Assembly (NCBI GenBank): GCA_964016885.1
Contig: OZ024742.1
Location: 232,314,001-232,378,000 of the forward strand
DNA: 64,000 nt
Reading direction: 5' to 3'
Source of the DNA: Eledone cirrhosa
Taxonomy: Eukaryota
Below, piece by piece: positions 1,219 through 55,691 of the stretch (position 1 is the first letter of the stretch; the number at the start of each line of letters is the position of its first letter). The notes below the pieces were generated by a model. The model was not told where the DNA came from, did no database searches, and was given only the letters and a program-made list of their open reading frames with translations. Position numbers and translations under genes: made by a program.

Positions 1219-1290
1219 TGTATGTATGTATGTATGTATGTATGTATGTATGTATGTATGTATGTATGTATGTATGTATGTATGTATGTA
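1190..1290. repeat. (TATG)n microsatellite
   Basis: Read directly from sequence. Confidence 0.98.
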
Positions 1291-1787
1291 GGGTGACTTT
1301 GGACATCCTGCAGGAGTAAAAACAAAACCTGTCAAAGGGCAAAGGAGCTCTTAAGAGTCAATGGCCATCCAAAATCACTGGGAGAGATGACCCCTTAGCC
1401 TTTGTCAAGGCAGAATTCTAGGAGAAGGAAAACTCTGATATAACACCTGCAACCCTGATGGTATCCAATGATGTTGACTTGTTCTTCTTTTGGTAAATAT
1501 CATCTTGGTTAAGAGAGTGGGACTGGCTTTGTGCAGTGCCTTTGCTCACTATAAAAGCTTCACGGCACAGGCATTGCTTTATATCTGGAGATCTCTCTGC
1601 ACTTGTCGTCCCATGGTACCAAAGGCAAAGCACTATGTGTCAATAATTGTCACAAGTGTAGTGTTTGTACCAGAGTTTTCAAGTCGCTGGCTGGACTAAA
1701 AAGTCACACTCGTTCAGCGCATCGGTAGGGGTTCTCCTACATGGATATAATGTAGTGGCCGTACTCGAAAACGAGTTGGCAGCCACC
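1291..1787 (+). mobile_element. Non-autonomous (TATG)n-inserted retroelement, variant N1
   Basis: Flanked on both sides by (TATG)n; near-identical to 38791-39287; 5' part homologous to 38350-38695; ends in hairpin GTGGCCGTACTCGAAAACGAGTTGGCAGCCAC. Confidence 0.8.
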
Positions 1788-2046
1788 ATGTATGTATGTA
1801 TGTATGTATGTATGTATGTATGTATGTATGTATGTATGTATGTATGTATGTATGTATGTATGTACGTATGTACGTACGTACGTATGTATGTATGTATGTA
1901 TGTATGTATGTATGTATGTATGTATGTATGTGTATGTATATATGTGTGTATATATATGTATGTATGTGTGTATATATATGTATGTATGTGTGAGTATATA
2001 TATATGTATGTATGTGTGTATATATATATATGTGTGTATGTATATA

Positions 2047-2095
<49 letters not shown>

Positions 2096-2194
2096 ATGTA
2101 TGTATGTATGTATGTATGTATGTATGTATGTATGTGTGTGTGTATATATATGTGTATGTATGTATATATATATATGTGTATGTATATATATATA
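1788..2194. repeat. Compound (TATG)n/(TA)n/(TG)n microsatellite
   Basis: Read directly from sequence. Confidence 0.98.
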
Positions 2195-5759: not shown

Positions 5760-6080
5760 GAGTCACCAACATCTCGTACGACAAGGCTTGCTGATGTCCG
5801 CCTTCGTCGCTAACAAGCGCTTGCGGAGGAGTCACCAACATCCCGTACGACGAGGCTTGCTGGTGTTCGCCTTCGTCACCAACAATTGCTTGCAGAGGAG
5901 TCACCAACATCCCGTACGATGCGGCTTGCTGGCGTTCGCCTTCGTCACCAACAAGCGCTTGCAGAGGAGTCACCAACATCCCGTCAGACGAGGCTTGCTG
6001 GGGTTCGCCTTCGTCGTCAACAAGCGCTTGCAGAGGAGTCCACGGCAGACAGAGACAACAGGCTTGCTGCTAAGCGTTCC
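5760..6080 (+). repeat. 69-bp coding minisatellite (about 4.5 copies; 23-aa repeat)
   Basis: GAGTCACC unit starts at 5760, 5829, 5898, 5967 and 6036; translates ALAEESPTSRxxRLAGVRLRxQQ. Confidence 0.9.
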
Positions 6081-6470
6081 CGGCATACATTAGCTACTGC
6101 TGCCAAGATCTCAGGCTCGATAAAAGCAGCCTTCAGATATAACCCCTCTGAGGATTACGGACTTCTGCCTACAGTTTCCATTGGCAAAATGGATAATGTC
6201 TGTACATCATGCAAGACAATGAAGTGGCCAGGCGAGGCGCCTTCTGTGTGCTGTGCAGGAGGTAAGGTGCAACTAGAGGCATTAGCTGACCCGCCAGACG
6301 TTCTTCTGAATCTACTTACAGGTGACGAAACTACGGCTACAACGTTCCGCCGTAACATGTGGAAATACAACTCCTGTTTCATGATGACCTCCTTTGGTGT
6401 AGACAATAACAACACCAACAACAGCGTGAACCCCAACAACAACTTTGCACCTGTGATGCGCGGGAAATAA
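5886..6470 (+). pseudogene. Helitron RepHel N-terminal fragment (basic repeats plus Cys cluster)
   Basis: AF.Y.P..DY...VSIGKM..VC..C..MKWPGE..SVCC.GGKV.L..L..PP..L..LL.G.......FR.N..KYNSCF.MTSFG is the characteristic pre-Rep region of Helitron proteins. Rep and helicase domains are absent. Confidence 0.85.
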
Positions 6471-11379: not shown

Positions 11380-12144
11380 TACACTTAAGTATGCCCGAGA
11401 AAGGGCGTCGGCTGCAGAGCTGTCTGACCCTTTAATGTAGCGAATATCAGTAGTATATTGGGATATATAATCCAGTTGGCGTACTAGGTGATATAAGGCT
11501 TGGAATATAAAGCGTACGTGAGAGGTTTATGGTCCGTGTAAATAGAAAACACAGTATCTTCTAATATGTGCCGGAAATGTCTCACACAGAGGTACGCTAC
11601 TAAAAGTTCCCCCCGACCGAATGTGTTGTACTTCGTTTCGGCCGGTTTGAGTCGTCTAGAGAAGAAAGAAATTGGCTGCCATGCATCGTCTATACATTGC
11701 TGGAGAACGCCACCGACCCCGACATCCGATGCCTCGACAAACGGACACAGCGGTGCGTCATGTTTGAGATGAACCAGCATTGTGGCCTCTGCTAAGGTCC
11801 TTTTGATTTTAAGAAAGGTAGCTGCTTGTGCATCATCGAAATTGATAAGCTGGTTCTTTCTTTTGAACTGCCGAATTATGTCTGTTAGCGGCTGGAGAAA
11901 CCTTGTACAGCGAGGATTGAACCGGTGGTAAAAAATTTTGAGGCTGAGGAACTCATGTTCTTTCCTCAAGGACGTAGGAGCGAGGAAATCTAAAATGAAC
12001 TTAACTTTGTCTTGGAGGGGACGGATTCCTTGTTTGTCGATGTAGTGTCCCAGAAAATCAAGGGAAGAAACACCGAAAAGACATTTGCCGGAGTTGATGA
12101 TAACACCAAACTGAGAAAAACGCTCGAAAAGCAGTCATAGGTAC
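11380..12144 (-). pseudogene. Gypsy RT C-terminus plus RNase H remnant
   Basis: KCLFG...LDFLGH, ASDVGVGGVLQQ...WQPISFFSRRL..AE.KY.TFGR.ELL..YL.VRHFRH.LE...F.IYTDHKPL. Confidence 0.92.
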
Positions 12145-21799: not shown

Positions 21800-22595
21800 C
21801 TCTTTAACTCTGGAAACTGGCTATTTATCACTATCGATTATTCTCAATCCGGAAACGGAAACAAGCAGATGGCCGTTTGCTTGACATCTTTTCTGTTTCA
21901 TGTGGCTGGCCATAGCCGAAAAAGGCATTACCACATGATGATGAAGTATAATACCTTTCAGACCAATAGCAATAAGGGCTCTGGAAAAGGGTCCGGCCCG
22001 ACAAGTGTCCCGGGGCACTGCAGCATCGGCCCAGTGGTCGTCCTGCTACTGCACCAAATTTCAAGTTTAAGCGTTTGAATATTGGGTGCTGGAACGTTCG
22101 CACCTTATTAGATTCTCAGTCTTTTACAATACGCCGTGGAAGAAAATCAGCACTGGTAGTCAAAGAGCTGCAGCGATACAACATGAACGTAATAGCCTTG
22201 TCTGAAACGAAACACACTCTGAAGAAGACCACTTCACAGAATAGTTTGATGGTTACACCTTTTATTGGAGAGGAAGAGCAGAAGGATGTAAGAGGGAGGC
22301 TGGTGTTGCATTTGCCGTTAAGAATTATCTAGTTTCTAAGCTAAAGGAACTTCCATGGGGATTAACTGATCGCCTTATATCAATGAGAATTCCATTATAA
22401 AAGAACAGGTTTGTCATTCTAGTGAGTGTATACGCTCCAACCATGAGTTCCTCTGAGGACGTAAAACTCTGTTTTATCTCTCACTGAATGAATAATCCGC
22501 ACGATTCCTCAGGCTGACAAAGTTGTAATTCTGGGTGACTTCAACGTTATAGTTGACAAGTATTATAAAACCTGGGATGTGCTCGGAAAACAGGG
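21800..22595 (+). mobile_element. RTE LINE 5' fragment (AP endonuclease remnant)
   Basis: NIGCWNVRTLLD...RKSALV.KEL.RYN..VIALSET; GYTFYWRG; GVAFAV; LVSVYAPT; ILGDFN; frameshifted. Confidence 0.88.
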
Positions 22596-33908: not shown

Positions 33909-34503
33909 TATCTCTTTCTCTTAATTTCGAGTATATTTATTTTGACCGGCCACCTTCCTGGTGGCAAGGTTGTAAAAGAAAGGAAATTGTCATCCCTTGA
34001 ATTGCAAGAATGTTTTGCAAATTTTGAAGGTGCCAGCTATCGCAGCCATTTGTAGACTATGAATTAGGGAGCTGCGCTCTTTGTCCGCAAATCCAAGTTC
34101 AGTCATACTTTGGTCCAAACGGGTTGGTATATAACCCGTAGCTCCAATAATGATGGGTATGAAACTAAAGGTGTATCTTGGATACTGAATTTGCAAACTC
34201 TTCATCAATGGTCCGTAGATGTCCTCCTTCTCCTGTATTTTTTTGACAACGTTTACATCAAGTGGGCAGCTGATCTCCACAACAGAACACGTTTTCAATG
34301 TGTGGTCCCAAACAACAATAACAGGCCGGTTGTGCTTTAATTTGGTGGCAGTTTTTATTTTCAGGTTCTACCAGTATTCCTTAGTGCCATCTGTCTCAAT
34401 ATATTCTTCCTCGTTTGTTGTTAATTTTGTTTTCCGAAGTGCGTTCCAGATGGTTCTAGCTATCCCATCGTGTCTCATGGGGAGGTAGTAGCGTGATGAC
34501 ATT
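33909..34503 (-). mobile_element. R4/Dong-like RLE non-LTR retrotransposon, family A, 5' truncated copy 1
   Basis: RHD motif, KHNRP(D)IVVWD...VVEISCP.D.N..K..EK..Y..L restriction-like endonuclease; short 3' UTR then (CATA)n tail; (CATA)n at 5' junction. Confidence 0.88.
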
Positions 34504-34521
34504 GTATGTATGTATGTATGT

Positions 34522-35288
34522 AATCTCTTTCTCTTAATTTCGAGTATATTTATTTTGACCGGCCACCTTCCTGGTGGCAAGGTTGTAAAGGAAAAAAAAT
34601 TGTCATCCCTTGAATCGCAAGAATGTTTTGCAAATTTTGAAGGTGCCAGCTATCGCAGTCATTTGTAGACTATGAATTAGAGAGCTGCGCTTTTTGTCCG
34701 CAAATCCAAGTTCAGTCATACTTTGGTCCAAGCGGGTTGGTATATAAGCCGTAGCTCCAATAATGATGGGTATGAAGCTAAAGGTGTATCTTGGATAATG
34801 GATTTGTAAACTCCTCATCAATGGTCCGTAGATGTCCTCCTTCTCCTGTATTTTTCTGACAACGTTTACATCAAGTGGGCAGCTGATCTCCACAACAGAA
34901 CACGTTTTCAATGTGTGGTCCCAAACAACAATATCAGGCCGGTTGAGCTTTAATTTGGTGGCAGTTTTTATTTTCAGGTTCCACCAGTATTCCTTAGTGC
35001 CATCTGTCTCAATATATTCTTCCTCGTTTGTTGTTAATTTTGTTTTCCCAAGTGCGTTCCAGATGGTTCTAGCTATCCCATCGTGTCTCATGAGGAAGTA
35101 GTAGCGAGATGACATTCTTTCGCAGCTGGCAACAATGTGGCTTACATCGTCGATCTTTGTTTAACATAGCCTACATTTATTGTCAGCTGCTGTCCCTCCC
35201 CTTTTGTGCAGCAGATATTTGGTAGGGAGTTCTTGTTCCTGTATTGCATAGAGATATCCCTCAAGGTGTGATGTCATAAACTTGTCGG
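34522..35288 (-). mobile_element. R4/Dong-like family A copy 2
   Basis: ORF 34603-35115 (RPDIVVWD..E.SCP) plus upstream EGYLYAIQEQELPTKY and a CCHC knuckle (CRLC...IDDVSHIVASC); microsatellite on both sides. Confidence 0.9.
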
Positions 35289-35360
35289 TATGTATGTATG
35301 TATGTATGTATGTATGTATGTATGTATGTATGTATGTATGTATGTATGTATGTATGTATG

Positions 35361-35579
35361 TTCTTCTGGTTTTATAATTTCACAAATTTTTTCCCAATAG
35401 AGAGAGAGTCGGTTTCGAACATAAACACAAGATATTGGAATTTACACATCAACTCCTTAGTGCCATCTGTCTCAATATATTCTTCCTCGTTTGTTGTTAA
35501 TTTTGTTTTCCGAAGTGCGTTCCAGATGGTTCTAGCTATCCCATCGTGTCTCATGGGGAGGTAGTAGCGAGATGACATT
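35361..35579 (-). mobile_element. Chimeric insertion: family A internal piece fused to the family B 3' UTR
   Basis: 35455-35579 matches A (MSSRYY...GTKE); 35361-35454 matches the B 3' end at 35657-35750. Confidence 0.8.
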
Positions 35580-35656
35580 GTATGTATGTATGTATGTATG
35601 TATGTATGTATGTATGTATGTATGTATGTATGTATGTATGTATGTATGTATGTATG

Positions 35657-37439
35657 TTCTTCTGGGTTTATAATTTCACAAATTTTTTACCAATAGAGAG
35701 AGGGTCGGTTTCTAACATAGACACAAGACATTGGAATTTACACATCAACTCGGTAGATATGTATGCACGCATGTGTAGATATGGATGTTATTGTATGTGT
35801 GGATGTGTATGTTTTGAGTTGTATGTGGGCATGTGTATATGCTTTGTATCGTACATGTGTATATGCAGTTATTAGATGCAACATTTTTGGAATGCTTTAC
35901 ATATTTTTACTGTTCCATTAATGGATTGTACTGGTAATGTCCTAACTAGTTGTGTTCTTTCTGTTCCTGTGAAGCCTAGCTTCTCAAGATTTGTATTGAG
36001 GCAGTTACTAACATACCCCAGTGCCCCAAATAATCACAGGCATAAATCTGAAGGTGAAATCAGGGTGGAGTATCTGCAGATATCTCATTAGTTCTGCATA
36101 AATATTCTCATTTTCGATAATCTTTGATATTATGCTGGGCAGCTTACTTCCACTGCTGTGCATGGCTTCTTTTCCCCGTCCCATATCATTATATCTGTTC
36201 TGTTATGCCTGCATTTTATTGGGGTTTTTACTGGAACATTCCACCAGTATTCTTTCATATTATGTACATGGATGTCTTCCACATTGCTGTAGCTTTTAAT
36301 GTGTTTATTATCGGGCTATCTTTTTTACGAACTGCATTGTACAGTGTTTTGGCCACTACATAGGTAGATAGTACCGCGATGACATCTTTGGACAGCTGCT
36401 GATGACATGGGTGATATCCTCGATGTTAGTTCTGCAGAATCTGCACTTGTTATCACATCTAGGTGTTTTGCCTGCATCCCTATCTCTTTTGTGAATCAGG
36501 TATTTCGTGTTAATCTCCTTTTCTTGGATTGCAAAAGCGTATCCTTCAAAGTGGGAGCCAATATAACGGTTGTTGGTCCAAGATAGACTACTTTCCTTAT
36601 CTATATTACTCTCACTCTGGAGCTTCCTGGCAACATATCCATGCATGATTTTTTACTGATAAGCATGCAGTTTTTCATCCATGGATTCACTGCGATACTG
36701 CTGAGCGACTTCCCTGGGTGTGAGTTTTTGATTATCACACAGGGAATATCTCTCGAGGAGTTCCTTCCCAACTCTCATGAGCTTATCTGTTTCATGCAGA
36801 TAGACTTGCTCGAGAAACGGGCTCCTACGCTTCGAGGTTCGTAGATGTTGTCGGAGGGATATGATGCGACATCCAAATGCTGTCTGGACTGATGTTAGGC
36901 CTCTGCTTCCCTGCTTACGTTTCAAGTAAAGGCGGTCTATGTCACTGTTGATGTGGAGGTTTCCTGTGTTGTTTAGTATTTTTCGAGTTCCAACATCAAC
37001 TGCTCGGATTTCGTCTATCGTCCAATTGAGTATTCCAAACGTTGGTGTTAGGACAGGCACAGCAAACACATTGTGAGCCACTGTTTTGTTTTGCGCAGAG
37101 AGTTCCGATGACCAGATCTTTCTTAATCGGGTGTAGTATTCCCTGGTTACGCGTTCTTTATTACAAATACCATTATAGGATATGTTCTCATCTATCCCCA
37201 GGTATCTGTAGCAGTCCTCATCAGATATCGGTGAAACAGTTAGGCCATTGATGACAATGTTGCTAGATTGGGTTGTTGTTTTTCCCCGCTTTACAGCCAT
37301 GTATGAGCATTTATCTTGGCCAAACTCCATTCCTATATCATTTGAGAACGTTGTAACCAGGTCAAGATTTTTCTTCATCCCATCCATGTTCTTGGCATAG
37401 AGTTTCAGATCGTCCACAAAGAAATTATGGGTTAGGTTC
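35657..37439 (-). mobile_element. R4/Dong-like family B, 5' truncated (RT end, thumb, CCHC, RLE)
   Basis: LTHNFFVDDLKLY, YRYLGI, DIDRLYL.RK.G.RGL, HGY, CRFC...EDITHVISSC, EYWWN...HNR.DIMIWD...VEVSCP; distinct 3' UTR plus (CATA)n tail. Confidence 0.92.
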
Positions 37440-37526
37440 GTATGTATGTATGTATGTATGTATGTATGTATGTATGTATGTATGTATGTATGTATGTATG
37501 TATGTATGTATGTATGTATGTATGTA

Positions 37527-37825
37527 CATGGGAGTGAAGGACCCTTAGCTTTTGTCAAGGCATTCTTCTAGGAGAAGGCAACTCAGGAAACTGGGATAAC
37601 TCCGATATAAAACCTGCGGCCCAGTAGTTACCGATGATGTTGATCTTTTCTTTTTTTCGGGTTGTAGCTACTGTCGCCCAGAGAGTGGAATTGGCTCAGT
37701 GCACAGTATTTCCTCACTTTAAAAAATATCTTTACGCACAGGCATTGCACGATAGAATTAATTAATAATTATTAATAAAGGTGTATCGTGCAATGGCCAT
37801 ACTCGATAACGAGGGGGCAGCCATC
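37527..37825 (+). mobile_element. Non-autonomous (TATG)n-inserted element, variant N2 (5' truncated)
   Basis: Highly similar to 38480-38771; (TATG)n flanks. Confidence 0.8.
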
Positions 37826-37858
<33 letters not shown>

Positions 37859-37898
37859 TGTATGTATGTATGTATGTATGTATGTATGTATGCATGCA

Positions 37899-37948
<50 letters not shown>

Positions 37949-37951
<3 letters not shown>

Positions 37952-38232
37952 CTCTTAATTTCGAGTACATTTTTGACCGACCACCTTCCTGGTGGCAAAG
38001 AAATTGTCATCCCTTGAATTGCAAGAATGTTTTACAAATGTTGAAGGTGTCAGCTATCGCAGCCATCTGTAGGGAATTAGGGAGCTGCGCTCTTTGTCCA
38101 CAAATCCAATTTCAGTCATACTTTGGTCCAAGCGGGTTGGTATATAACCTGTAGCTCCAATAACGATGGGTATGAAGCTGAAGGTGTATCTTGGATACTG
38201 GATCTGCAAACTCCTTAGAAATGCTCCGTAGA
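37949..38232 (-). mobile_element. R4/Dong-like family A copy 3 (short 3' fragment)
   Basis: IYGAFLRSLQIQYPRYTFSFIPIVIGATGYIPTRLDQSM plus the family A 3' UTR. Confidence 0.88.
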
Positions 38233-38243
38233 TGTATGTATGT

Positions 38244-38771
38244 CGGGTCACTCTTGAGTGCTATTGGCAACATGTAACCCAGTACAACCTGTCGCATGGT
38301 CGGGTCGTCGGCGACTAAACCGGCAACCCCACCAAGTTTACTTGGTGAGGAGGGTAATTTTGGACACCCTGCAGAACAAAAAACAAAACCTGACAAAGGG
38401 CGGAAGAACTCATAAGAGTCAACAGCCATCCCAAAGTGTGTAAATATGTATATACACGTGTACCGCACGGTTAAACCACTGGGAGTGAAGGACCCCTAGC
38501 CTTTGTCAGGGCATTCTTCTAGAAGGCAACTCAGGAAACTGGGATGACTCCGATATAAAACCTGCGGCTCAGTAGTTACCGATGATGTTGAGCTTTCTTC
38601 TTTTCGGGTTATAGCTACTGTCGCTCAGAGAGTGGGATTGGTTCAGTGCACAGTCTTTCCTCACTTAAATAAATATCTTCACGCACAGGCATTGCACGAT
38701 AGAATTAATTAATAATTATTAATAATGGTATATCGTGCAATGGCCATACTCGATAACGAGGGGCAGCCATC
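38244..38771 (+). mobile_element. Non-autonomous element N2, longest copy
   Basis: Starts after TATGTATGT, hairpin-rich, ends ATGGCCATACTCGATAACGAGGGGCAGCCATC then ATGT repeats. Confidence 0.8.
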
Positions 38772-38790
38772 ATGTATGTATATATGTATG

Positions 38791-39287
38791 TAGTGTTTGT
38801 ACCAGAGTTTTCAAGTCGCTGGCTGGACTAAAAAGCCGCACTCGTTCAGCGCATCGGTAGGAGTTCTCCTACATGGATATAAAGTAGTGGCCGTACTCGA
38901 AAACGAGGCAGAATTGTAGGAGAAGGAAAACTCTGATATAACACCTGCAACCCTGATGGTATCCAATGATGTTGACTTATTCTTCTTTTTGGTAAATATC
39001 ATCTTGGGTTAAGAGAGTGGGACTGGCTTTGTGCAGTGCCTTTGCTCACTATAAAAGCTTCACGGCACAGGCATTGCTTTATATCTGGAGATCTCTCTAC
39101 ACTTGTCGTCACATGGTACCAAGGGCCCAACACTATGTGTCAATAATTGTCACAGGTGTAGTGTTTGTACCAGAGTTTTCAAGTCGCTGGCTGGACTAAA
39201 AGTCACACTTGTTTAGCGCATCGGTAGGGGTTCTCCTACATGGATATAAAGTAGTGGCCGTACTCGAAAACGAGTTGGCAGCCACCA
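38791..39287 (+). mobile_element. Non-autonomous element N1, permuted / partial tandem copy
   Basis: 3' segment (38791-38906) precedes a second unit (38907-39287) matching 1408-1787; (ATGT)n tail 39288-39370. Confidence 0.82.
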
Positions 39288-39341
39288 TGTATGTATGTAT
39301 GTATGTATGTATGTATGTATGTATGTATGTATGTATGTATG

Positions 39342-39373
<32 letters not shown>

Positions 39374-39454
39374 AACTACTATTTTAAAAACATGAAGGTA
39401 ATAATAATAATTGTTTCTACTTTTGGTATAAGGCAGGGGAAGTACCATTGTTTG

Positions 39455-53575: not shown

Positions 53576-53647
53576 AGATGCAGGTGAAACTCCAGAGTAA
53601 CAAGACTCACAATTTACCCTTAATAAAATGAATATATATTTAAACAT

Positions 53648-53690
<43 letters not shown>

Positions 53691-53692
<2 letters not shown>

Positions 53693-55691
53693 GCGGGATG
53701 GGGGAAGTAGAGAGGACTATCAAGTGGCCAGGAGGGTAGCTAGGAGACAAGTGTACTTCGCAAGAAGGGAAGCTGAGGAAAGAAAGTTCAAGCATGTTCT
53801 ACAACGCGATGACCAAAAACGTGAGGTGTTCAGGATTGCTAGGCAATGCGTCAAGGAAAACCGTGATATTGTCGGGGAGAAGTGTGTACTAAACGACGAT
53901 GGCACACTTGCCATCACCGACGCTGATAAGAAGGTAGCTTGGAAGTGTCACTATGAAAGGCTACTAAATGAGGAGAATAATTGGGAGAAAGGCAGTCTCC
54001 CCCATATCGACCCAATAGAGGGACCAGCAGTGTTAGTCGAGGGGAGTATAATAAGTAAGGCAATCAAGGATATGAAGACTGGTAAGGCGGCTGGGCCTTC
54101 GGAAATAGTTGCTGAGATGCTGAAGGCATCTGGCACGGTGGGACACACCATGGTCACCCGCATAGTTAACCAAGTCGTACAGAATGGGGTTGTTCCGAAG
54201 GACTGGCATAGCAGCATCATCGTTAACTGTTATAAGGGTAAAGGAGACGCCCTAGATAGGAGTAACTATAGAGGCATTAAATTAATCGACCAGGTCATGA
54301 AGGTCACGGAAAAAGTAATAGCGCAACTAATCAGAGAGAGAATTGACCTAGATGAAATGCAGTTCGGGTTTGTGTCAGGCAAAAGTACCACAGACGCTCT
54401 TTTCATAGTACGACAACTACAGGAGAAGTACCTAGCTAAAGGTAAACCCCTCTACTTAGCTTTTGTCGACTTGGAGAAAGCCTTCGACAGAGTCCCCCGC
54501 TCCATTATCTGGTGGGCTCTTAGAAAACTAGGCGTTGACGAATGGCTTGTGAGGGCTATACAAGCCATGTATAAAGAAACAGTCAGCAAGGTTAGAATTA
54601 ACAACGAATATAGTGATGAGTTTAGCGTAAAAGTTGGCATCCATCAGGGCTCTGTTCTCAGTCCACTACTATTTATTATTGCCCTTCAGGCTATAACAGA
54701 GGAGTTCAAGACAGGCTGCCCATGGGAACTCCTATACGCAGACGACCTGACACTCATAGCGGAATCAATGGCCGAGCTAGAGAAGAAATTCCAAACATGG
54801 AAGCACGGCCTAGAGTCAAAAGGACTTAAAATTAACCTGGCTAAGACCAAAGTACTAGTTTGTAGGAAAGAAAACAAGGCGGCGGTCCCTTCTGGGAAAT
54901 GGTCGTGCTCGGTGTGTAGGAAAGGCGTAGGTAGAAACTCCATTTTATGTCCTAAATGCAAAGTATGGGTGCATAAAAGATGTAGTGGGATCACAGGTAA
55001 GCTAACTAAGAACATAGATTTTACATGTGGCCGGTGCTCTGGTGCAATAAGTAGCAGCAAGTGCCCACAAACTACTAGCTCTTTCAATTGCGCAGAGGGT
55101 TCTATAGAAATAGTGGACAGCTTCCGTTACCTGGGCGATAAAATCAGCAGTGGGGGAGGGTGCTCTGAAAGTACTGTAGCTAGAGTCAGAACTGGTTGGA
55201 AAAAGTTCAGAGAGCTTATACCACTATTAGCTGCTAAAGGGTTCTCACTAAAAATGAAAGGCAGGTTGTACGATGCCTGCATACGAACAGCAATGCTGCA
55301 TGGCAGTGAGACCTGGGCATTGTGTGCAGAGGATATACGCAGACTAGAGAGGAACGAAGCTTGCATGCTCCGCTGGATGTGTAACAGTAATATACGTGAA
55401 CGGCAAAGCATAAACGAACTAAGGAAAAAATTAGAGATAAGAGGGATCAGATGTTGTTTACTCGAGAGAAGGCTACGTTGGTATGGACACGTGATGCGCA
55501 TGAAAGTCGATAGCTGTATAACAAAGTGCAGGGCAATAAAGATAGACGGTAGTCACGGAATAGGCAGACCTAGAAAAACCTGGGACGAGCTGATAAACTC
55601 CGACATCACACACTTACACCTCTCCAAGACAATGTCACTGGACCGAGACCTTTGGCGGTACTCAGTAACAGAGAAAACCCGCCTTACCTAA
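53691..55691 (+). CDS. RTE-clade LINE reverse transcriptase, 5' truncated (no endonuclease) but uninterrupted, with a PHD-like Cys/His insert
   Basis: NYRGIKL, QFGF, FVDLEKAFDRV, HQGSVLSPLLF, LLYADDL, FRYLG, RRLRWYGHV. The ORF start in the track (53628) lies in flanking DNA/microsatellite. Confidence 0.95.

Follow-up and report, generated by a model that had tools for sequence, protein, structure and literature searches.

Background

In stringent LINE-SINE pairs like UnaL2 and UnaSINE1, the two partners have in common a conserved 3' stem-loop that is followed by short tandem repeats, and SINEs of the UnaSINE1 type carry Pol III-type, tRNA-derived heads. For RTE elements, bipartite non-autonomous families are described as common (PMC7245038, PMC5786205), with Bov-A, RTESINE1/2, WALLSI3, MAR4_MD and the hagfish RTE-2_EBu and RTE-4_EBu derivatives as examples (PMC5786205, PMC7245038). 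According to the available parts of these accounts, such families combine an RTE-type LINE's 5'UTR with its extreme 3' end, have no ORF, end in a microsatellite-like tail, are probably moved by the enzyme of the parent and occur as several independent derivatives per genome; their restriction to a few clades is called unexplained in the part of PMC5786205 at hand. RTE elements with microsatellite 3'UTRs are likewise on record in the accessible part of PMC2887409. The octopus element RTE-2_OV encodes an endonuclease (EN), a reverse transcriptase (RT) and a C2H2 finger in a single ORF of ~1100-1200 aa, and a microsatellite that starts at the ORF end fills most of its 3'UTR; neither a non-autonomous partner nor a terminal hairpin is described for it in the available part of PMC9115989. 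Its sequence is stated as not reported (PMC13282606), which limits any likeness to one of description. Finally, the accessible part of PMC3414825 describes the SIDEs of R2, i.e. the joined 5' and 3' ends of a non-LTR element that insert through target-primed reverse transcription (TPRT) with variable 5' junctions.

Here we analyse two short repeats, N1 and N2, from a stretch of 64,000 nt of the Eledone cirrhosa genome (contig OZ024742.1, positions 232,314,001 to 232,378,000; hereafter the window). They fall in a known kind, namely the bipartite non-autonomous RTE derivatives, and most probably the element at 38244-38771 is a full-length N2: a high-copy element without an ORF in which the 5'UTR of an APE-type, RTE-like LINE is joined to the last ~40 nt of that LINE. 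Copying probably takes place in trans, through the reverse transcriptase of the LINE, which would recognise the shared 3' stem-loop and prime on AT/ATGT repeats. With the UnaSINE1-type SINEs N1 and N2 share the 3' stem-loop and short repeats held in common with a LINE partner, but their head is the LINE's own 5'UTR. As far as the available descriptions of the bipartite RTE families go, three things differ here: (ATGT)n or (AT)n stands on both flanks, three parent-derivative pairs occur side by side with one parent intact, and a covarying 5'UTR-3'UTR helix, which those descriptions do not mention, brackets the deleted part. The R2 SIDEs, in what could be consulted of PMC3414825, belong to a site-specific element with a restriction-like endonuclease (RLE) in rDNA and retain a proven 5' ribozyme, whereas N1 and N2 have a partner of the APE type and target a microsatellite, and neither Rfam scan nor consensus folding revealed a ribozyme (see below).

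N1 and N2 in the window and in the genome

BLAST comparison with full-length references, which are single genomic copies, confirmed that the four N copies that a first-pass annotation had reported within (TATG)n arrays are all real, all enclosed by such arrays and all on the + strand (Table 1). At 38895-38915 the N1 3' fragment, which ends inside its terminal hairpin (...CGAAAACGAG), is fused directly to about position 226 of N1 (GCAGAATT...), and this junction looks like a template switch or an abortive or re-initiated copy. The longest ATG-initiated ORF on the + strand of 38244-38771 measures 39 aa, i.e. the element has no coding capacity. ARAGORN reported no tRNA-like gene in 1000-39600, and the three one-mismatch B-box matches in the window, where 4.0 are expected by chance, all lie outside the N copies, so that the earlier statement that credible ORFs and Pol III boxes are lacking holds. 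Classification of N1 and N2 as Pol III SINEs was tried and rejected, as neither a tRNA-like head nor internal boxes were detected in the N copies (ARAGORN, B-box and Rfam searches).

Table 1. Positions, strands and defining properties of the elements, structures and repeats discussed in the text (positions without a copy label are those of the window)
Feature	Position	Strand	Description
N2, full-length short variant, 528 nt	38244-38771	+	N2 positions 1-528
N2 head	38244-38441	+	79.3% identity to L120 positions 3-200, the extreme 5'UTR end of LINE-P
N2 mid region	38464-38727	+	90.3% identity to L161 positions 1231-1494, ORF-proximal 5'UTR of intact LINE-Q
N2 closing helix, 5' strand	38690-38701	+	CATTGCACGATA
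N2 closing helix, 3' strand	38731-38742	+	TATCGTGCAATG; 3-nt overlap with outer stem of terminal hairpin
N2 terminal stem-loop	38740-38771	+	ATGGC-CATA-CTCG-ATAA-CGAG-GGGCA-GCCAT + C; same type as LINE-Q 3' end
N2, 5'-truncated	37529-37828	+	N2 positions 237-528 (BLAST match 37529-37825)
N1, 5'-truncated	1290-1787	+	positions 108-606 of the 606-nt full-length copy, 98.4% identity
Closing helix of that N1 copy	1572-1584 / 1745-1757	+	
Terminal hairpin of that N1 copy	1755-1787	+	
N1 3' fragment	38791-38905	+	abuts the next feature
N1, 5'-truncated	38906-39286	+	N1 positions 226-606
Host microsatellite (GTAT)n	37440-37526		
Further host microsatellite tracts	37829-37949; 39287-39371; 1189-1290; 1788-2193		
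LINE-T fragment	21894-22592	+	5'UTR end and APE; older related RTE-like lineage
RLE-type LINE, C-terminal part	34520-35290	-	CCHC knuckle, RPD...E motif, (ACAT)n tail
Related RLE-type pieces	36653-37567 (RT); 37950-38221	-	
LINE-Q helix			CATTGCAC / GTGCAATG; 8 pairs; separation 4095 nt
N2 helix			strands as above; 12 pairs; separation 53 nt
N1 helix			CATTGCTTTATAT / ATATAA(A/T)GTAGTG; 13 pairs including G-U; separation 186 nt
LINE-P helix			CATCGCCTGAT / ATCGGGCGATG; 11 pairs; separation 3503 and 2886 nt
LINE-S helix			ATCGCTTGT / ACAAGCGAT, then CAG / CTG; 9 + 3 pairs; separation about 3500 nt
N3 helix			strands and pairs as LINE-S; separation 73 nt
N3 and LINE-S copies	L128 735-1272; L016 20-533; L150; L003; L158 (reverse strand)		
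Composite repeat copies	L034-L063 (e.g. L035 1501-3520); L064-L068; L121, L122, L124		

First-look searches of the 3.0-Gb genome with the last 296 nt of N2 and the last 208 nt of N1 yielded at least 2541 and at least 1190 candidates, respectively, both numbers being lower bounds. The best N2 copies are 95-97% identical. In the case of N1, the 40 best copies, all of which were scored, are 99% identical and spread over many chromosomes, and because the copies are that alike N1 must have been active very recently. Full-length copies begin directly after ATGT, N2 with CGGGTCAC and N1 with CAGGTCAC, the N2 start being common to 19 of 30 genomic copies. A fixed 3' end opposite a variable 5' end, the polarity that had been described from the copies in the window, is also what the larger samples display (n=30 for each family): the 30 best N1 copies all have the same 3' end, 15 being full length and 15 truncated at scattered 5' positions, and N2 copies start at position 11 or before (19/30) or at positions 75-321 (11/30). 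This polarity fits TPRT with an AU(GU) tail. At some element 5' ends (L010 and L013, both N2 flanks, and L020) the first ~15 nt are present as an inverted duplication (TTACCAGTAGCACCA..TGGTGCTACTGGTAAC), as expected for an outcome of snap-back priming in second-strand synthesis.

The (ATGT)n tails that this polarity had been taken to imply are found, in the form of (ATGT)n or (AT)n, and they stand on both flanks. All 30 N1 copies have a 5' flank of (ATGT)n or (AT)n and a 3' tail of the same type (16 ATGT and 14 AT, counted by hand); for N2 a crude classifier called the 5' flank a repeat in 22 of 30 copies, and most of the other eight end in ATGT when inspected by eye. As repeat flanks hide target duplications, one is readable in a single copy only, namely the 5'-truncated N2 copy L029, which lies outside a repeat and carries a duplication of ~21 bp. 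Copies of N1 also sit inside the microsatellite-rich 3'UTR of LINE-Q copies (L132, upstream part; L155, 5512-5935), so that the 3'UTR of the LINE itself is a landing pad.

Autonomous LINEs related to N1 and N2

Several N2 copies have a coding element with an N2-like terminal hairpin upstream of them, and tracing this element led to four to five related LINE lineages. The first, LINE-P (~4.6 kb; L120, L116, L117), begins with an N1/N2-type head, to which a repeat-rich spacer, the mid region (shared as far as GCACAGGCATCGCC) and an ORF are joined in this order, and it ends in the hairpin and then AT(GT) repeats; its ORF encodes an APE domain (Pfam, 30.3 bits with a cut-off of 24.5) and an RT domain, followed by C2H2-like fingers. 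The heads of N2 and N1 are 79-86% identical to the first ~200 nt of LINE-P copies. The sampled LINE-P copies are all degraded (82-87% identity), and genome searches recovered no intact LINE-P, only degraded or composite-repeat copies with a longest open frame of 642 aa. With the APE domain of LINE-P as a protein query, ~70 of the 150 matches listed have open frames of >1150 aa that are stop-free in the match (counted by eye).

LINE-Q is a family with many intact ORFs of ~1200 aa that encode APE, RT and three C2H2 fingers. All listed copies among 23 that were chosen for their open frames have ORFs of >1200 aa, and they are 96.6-99.2% identical to one copy. The Pfam model Exo_endo_phos matches residues 83-304 with 44.5 bits (cut-off 24.5) and RVT_1 scores 106.8 bits; at the C-terminus the C2H2-type models remain below their cut-offs, and three CxxC...HxxxH fingers can be read in the translation. 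Within L155 there is no ORF of 200 aa or more besides the main one, i.e. the element has a single ORF and no ORF1. The 3'UTR (~430 nt) starts with (TG)n ~15 nt past the stop codon, is made up mostly of repeats and ends in exactly the hairpin of N2, the sequence common to both being GTGCAATGGCCATACTCGATAACGAGGGGGCAGCCATC, followed by (AT)n or (ATGT)n; the tails of the 23 copies are (AT)n in 11, (ATGT)n in six and mixed in three, and in three a tail was not found. The autonomous elements with the same terminal hairpin, on which the first-pass annotation had staked its reading, thus exist as LINE-Q and LINE-P.

The correspondence between N2 and LINE-Q extends to both sides of the ORF: N2 positions 221-484 are ~90% identical to the last ~260 nt before the LINE-Q ORF, and N2 positions 488/492-528 are 95-97% identical to the LINE-Q 3' end. 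The head of N2 (1-220) is absent from LINE-Q, the own 5' end of which (GAGGGAGCTTATAG...) is different; N2 therefore combines a P-type head with a Q-type body and is a mosaic rather than a simple one-step deletion of the present-day LINE-Q. The LINE-Q 5' end being unrelated to the head of N1, N2 and LINE-P points to a swap of 5' ends between lineages. The 5'UTR of LINE-Q, as read in L155 (716-1880) and in the upstream parts of L161, L162, L165 and L175, is ~1.5 kb long and contains low-complexity runs (poly-purine, (CAA)n, (CA)n, (GCC)n and T25).

Alignment of N1 and N2 shows that head and mid region are common to both up to GCACAGGCATTGC, after which they diverge. The N1 3' part reads, by eye, as the end of a LINE ORF with the last C2H2 finger. 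Accordingly, the earlier description of a shared 5' region with different middles stands as far as the sharing is concerned, and the middles are not arbitrary: that of N1 is a LINE ORF end, and the 12-bp stem of N2 has its equivalent in N1 and in every partner LINE examined. A parent with the exact 3' end of N1 was not found, a genome search with the N1 3' part returning N1 copies only.

A further lineage is LINE-S, with L158 and about 15 other copies; it is accompanied by an ORF-less derivative of its own, N3, that consists of the LINE-S 5'UTR up to just before the ATG and ~45 nt after the stop codon. N1, N2 and N3 each match an autonomous lineage at both ends and do so without its ORF, which bears out the proposal that N1 and N2 arose from autonomous non-LTR elements by internal deletion, with both the 5'UTR and the 3' end retained. 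A homologous-protein search returned full-length proteins elsewhere of 1050-1200 aa with the same domains; neither this search nor the protein atlas provided a clade name for the partner proteins beyond their domain layout. Judged by the architecture and the likeness to the published RTE-2_OV, i.e. by a single ORF with endonuclease, RT and C2H2 finger and a microsatellite-filled 3'UTR, the partner LINEs probably belong to the RTE clade; the layout also agrees with the general account of RTE elements in PMC2887409.

The terminal stem-loop

Eight lineage variants share an inner 5-bp hairpin, A-CUCG/CGAG-U, with a variable tetraloop, and the hairpin types of N1, N2, LINE-Q and LINE-P have an additional outer stem of 5-6 bp; in N3 the inner stem reads CTCT/AGAG. 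In an alignment of 10 lineage representatives, 89.9% of the hairpin cells pair, compared with 24-50% in slid controls. The outer pair is A-U in nine and G-C in one (N1), and one inner pair is G-C in six and U-A in four, LINE-S and N3 representing the change to U-A. That the hairpin covaries, as had been suggested from the window copies, is borne out by these two pairs that changed on both sides and by a covariation score above 500 of 500 shuffles; the support from the 10 rows is moderate, because they are related to each other and also supplied the structure itself.

A closing helix between 5'UTR and 3'UTR

In every lineage, complementarity in a fixed register links the nucleotides immediately after the conserved 5'UTR motif GCACAGG with those immediately before the terminal hairpin (Table 1). 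The 12-bp stem that had been noted in N2 is the N2 form of this helix: the stem is indeed present, but it is not private to N2. For LINE-T, a single copy (L200) has both ends, and inspection by eye gives ~10 pairs and one bulge. The helix covaries across five lineages, and in the autonomous elements it encloses the whole ORF. At position 7 the pair is A-U, U-A or C-G depending on the lineage, at position 4 it is U-A or C-G, and at position 9 two LINE-P copies differ, with G-C in one and A-U in the other. Part of the variation within families is CpG decay, a process that produces G-U pairs in the absence of selection, and it is the transversion pairs between lineages that constitute the real signal.

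Predicted duplex energies point in the same direction, cognate 5' and 3' segments reaching -14 to -26 kcal/mol versus -4 to -9 kcal/mol for LINE-Q against LINE-S and -8 to -12 kcal/mol for LINE-Q or N2 against N1. Cognate segments outscore 492-500 of 500 shuffles, with the exception of the CpG-decayed LINE-S copy L180 (120/500), and spurious anchors inside ORFs, which served as informal negative controls, gave no pairing. The minimum-energy and centroid folds of whole N2 and whole N1 include the helix beside the terminal hairpin (z -3.5 and -2.5, respectively), and the helix competes with the outer stem of the hairpin for 3 nt.

In the autonomous elements, ~8-13 nt after GCACAGG would thus pair with the nucleotides before the terminal stem-loop, 2.9-4.1 kb away; with the 5'UTR paired to the 3' end, the whole ORF would therefore sit in a loop. 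A limited literature search found no report of long-range or panhandle pairing in non-LTR elements, and the covarying closing helix is the one lead that goes beyond what published accounts were found to describe. It is conceivable, and we put it forward tentatively, that the RTE-type LINEs studied here keep the 5'UTR-3'UTR helix under selection, that helix and stem-loop together form the true recognition module of the RT, and that template switching across the helix base sheds the ORF, which would explain why RTE elements, in contrast to most LINE clades, are biased towards bipartite 5'UTR+3'UTR parasites.

Alternative origins of the N copies

The first-pass annotation had attributed N1 and N2 to a third family of RLE elements (R2/R4/Dong-type), the restriction-like endonuclease of which would nick the strand opposite to that used by the neighbouring RLE families. 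The minus strand of 34400-38243 does hold at least three RLE-type LINE pieces that have (ACAT)n tails and are interspersed with the N copies of the + strand, so RLE elements share these arrays on the other strand, and R2 is known from the accessible part of PMC3414825 to yield internally deleted elements. Yet every LINE that shares sequence with the N elements at either end has an N-terminal APE (Exo_endo_phos) domain, then RT and C-terminal C2H2 fingers directly before the 3'UTR, and in none of them does a CCHC or PD-(D/E)xK domain follow the RT, which leaves an RLE source barely tenable. What survives of the proposal is the orientation, opposite to that of the minus-strand RLE neighbours, and not the RLE class of the N elements themselves; with RLE elements on the minus strand and N elements with APE-type partners on the plus strand, two endonuclease classes share one array on opposite strands. 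Elsewhere in the window we noted a 696-aa open frame with RT and a PHD finger (53601-55691, + strand), an RNase H fragment of an LTR retrotransposon (11484-12134, - strand) and a 69-bp tandem repeat with an STPR-repeat open frame (5814-6470, + strand).

It is also very improbable, if somewhat less so, that the N copies are by-products and represent 3' portions either of longer, composite repeats or of LINEs that were truncated at ATGT repeats in their interior. This idea draws on a set of 30 copies, each of which has a 5'-truncated LINE-P 3' end, a short (ATGT)n and a full N2, all 30 also sharing an upstream repeat X of ~1.3 kb; most N2 copies and 30 of 30 N1 copies examined, however, stand alone between microsatellite flanks without an upstream LINE-P, N1 copies scattered over the chromosomes are nearly identical (see above), and the internal junctions are constant and family-specific. 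The composite repeat itself, with at least 1409 candidates, runs from X (starting with GGCACTACAACGCTATTAGCTG) through a microsatellite, ~2.5 kb of 5'-truncated LINE-P with a frame break common to all copies and a short (ATGT)n to a full N2 of the long variant. This layout is common to all of the 30 best copies, which are ~95% identical, and in 4 of 4 the 5' flank is non-repeat; the shared layout, X included, implies that the composite unit itself was amplified. Unlikely, too, is a self-cleaving HDV-like ribozyme in the head, as had been envisaged at 38244-38375, that would cut the precise 5' end and free the N and LINE RNAs from RNAs produced by read-through of the microsatellite or of elements upstream. 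For some RTE families, HDV-like ribozymes have been reported (Ruminski 2011, as cited in PMC5786205), among the non-coding parts the head is conserved best (79-88% between lineages for the first ~200 nt), whole N2 and N1 fold more stably than shuffles, full-length copies have a single start position, and an upstream TATGT, predicted to pair with an internal ACATG, is retained even in (AT)n contexts. The Rfam scan of 37400-39400 at E<=10, however, returned no ribozyme family, only miRNA-like microsatellite noise; consensus folding of the head gave simple nested hairpins, among which a small 5' hairpin covaries (CGCTC/GAGCG, CACTC/GAGTG and CACCA/TGGTG, the N2 copy in the window having the CACTC/GAGTG form); and threading of the HDV P1-P4 helices by eye failed, with P1 mismatched and P2 without a partner. 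With no model match and a fold of nested hairpins the ribozyme idea is unsupported, within the bounds set by the poor performance of covariance models and RNAalifold on double pseudoknots.

A model for N1 and N2

In the preferred reading, that of N1 and N2 as derivatives mobilised in trans by an APE-type, RTE-like LINE, the N elements would be transcribed from the retained 5'UTR, probably by Pol II. The LINE-Q protein would bind the stem-loop, perhaps together with the closing helix, its APE domain would nick the strand that carries (ACAT)n/(AT)n, and the RNA would anneal at the nick through its AU(GU) tail, giving rise to target-primed reverse transcription. As for the deletions themselves, recombination or a switch of template close to the base of the closing helix may have produced them.

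Conclusions

The analysis names the likely carriers of two abundant and until now unclassified short repeats, and it shows that two unrelated classes of endonuclease colonise these tetranucleotide arrays from opposite strands. If functional, the closing helix would offer a structural explanation, open to test, of the known but so far unexplained readiness with which RTE elements give rise to bipartite non-autonomous derivatives, and would define a minimal cis-acting module, namely closing helix, stem-loop and AU(GU) tail, for use in RTE retrotransposition assays.
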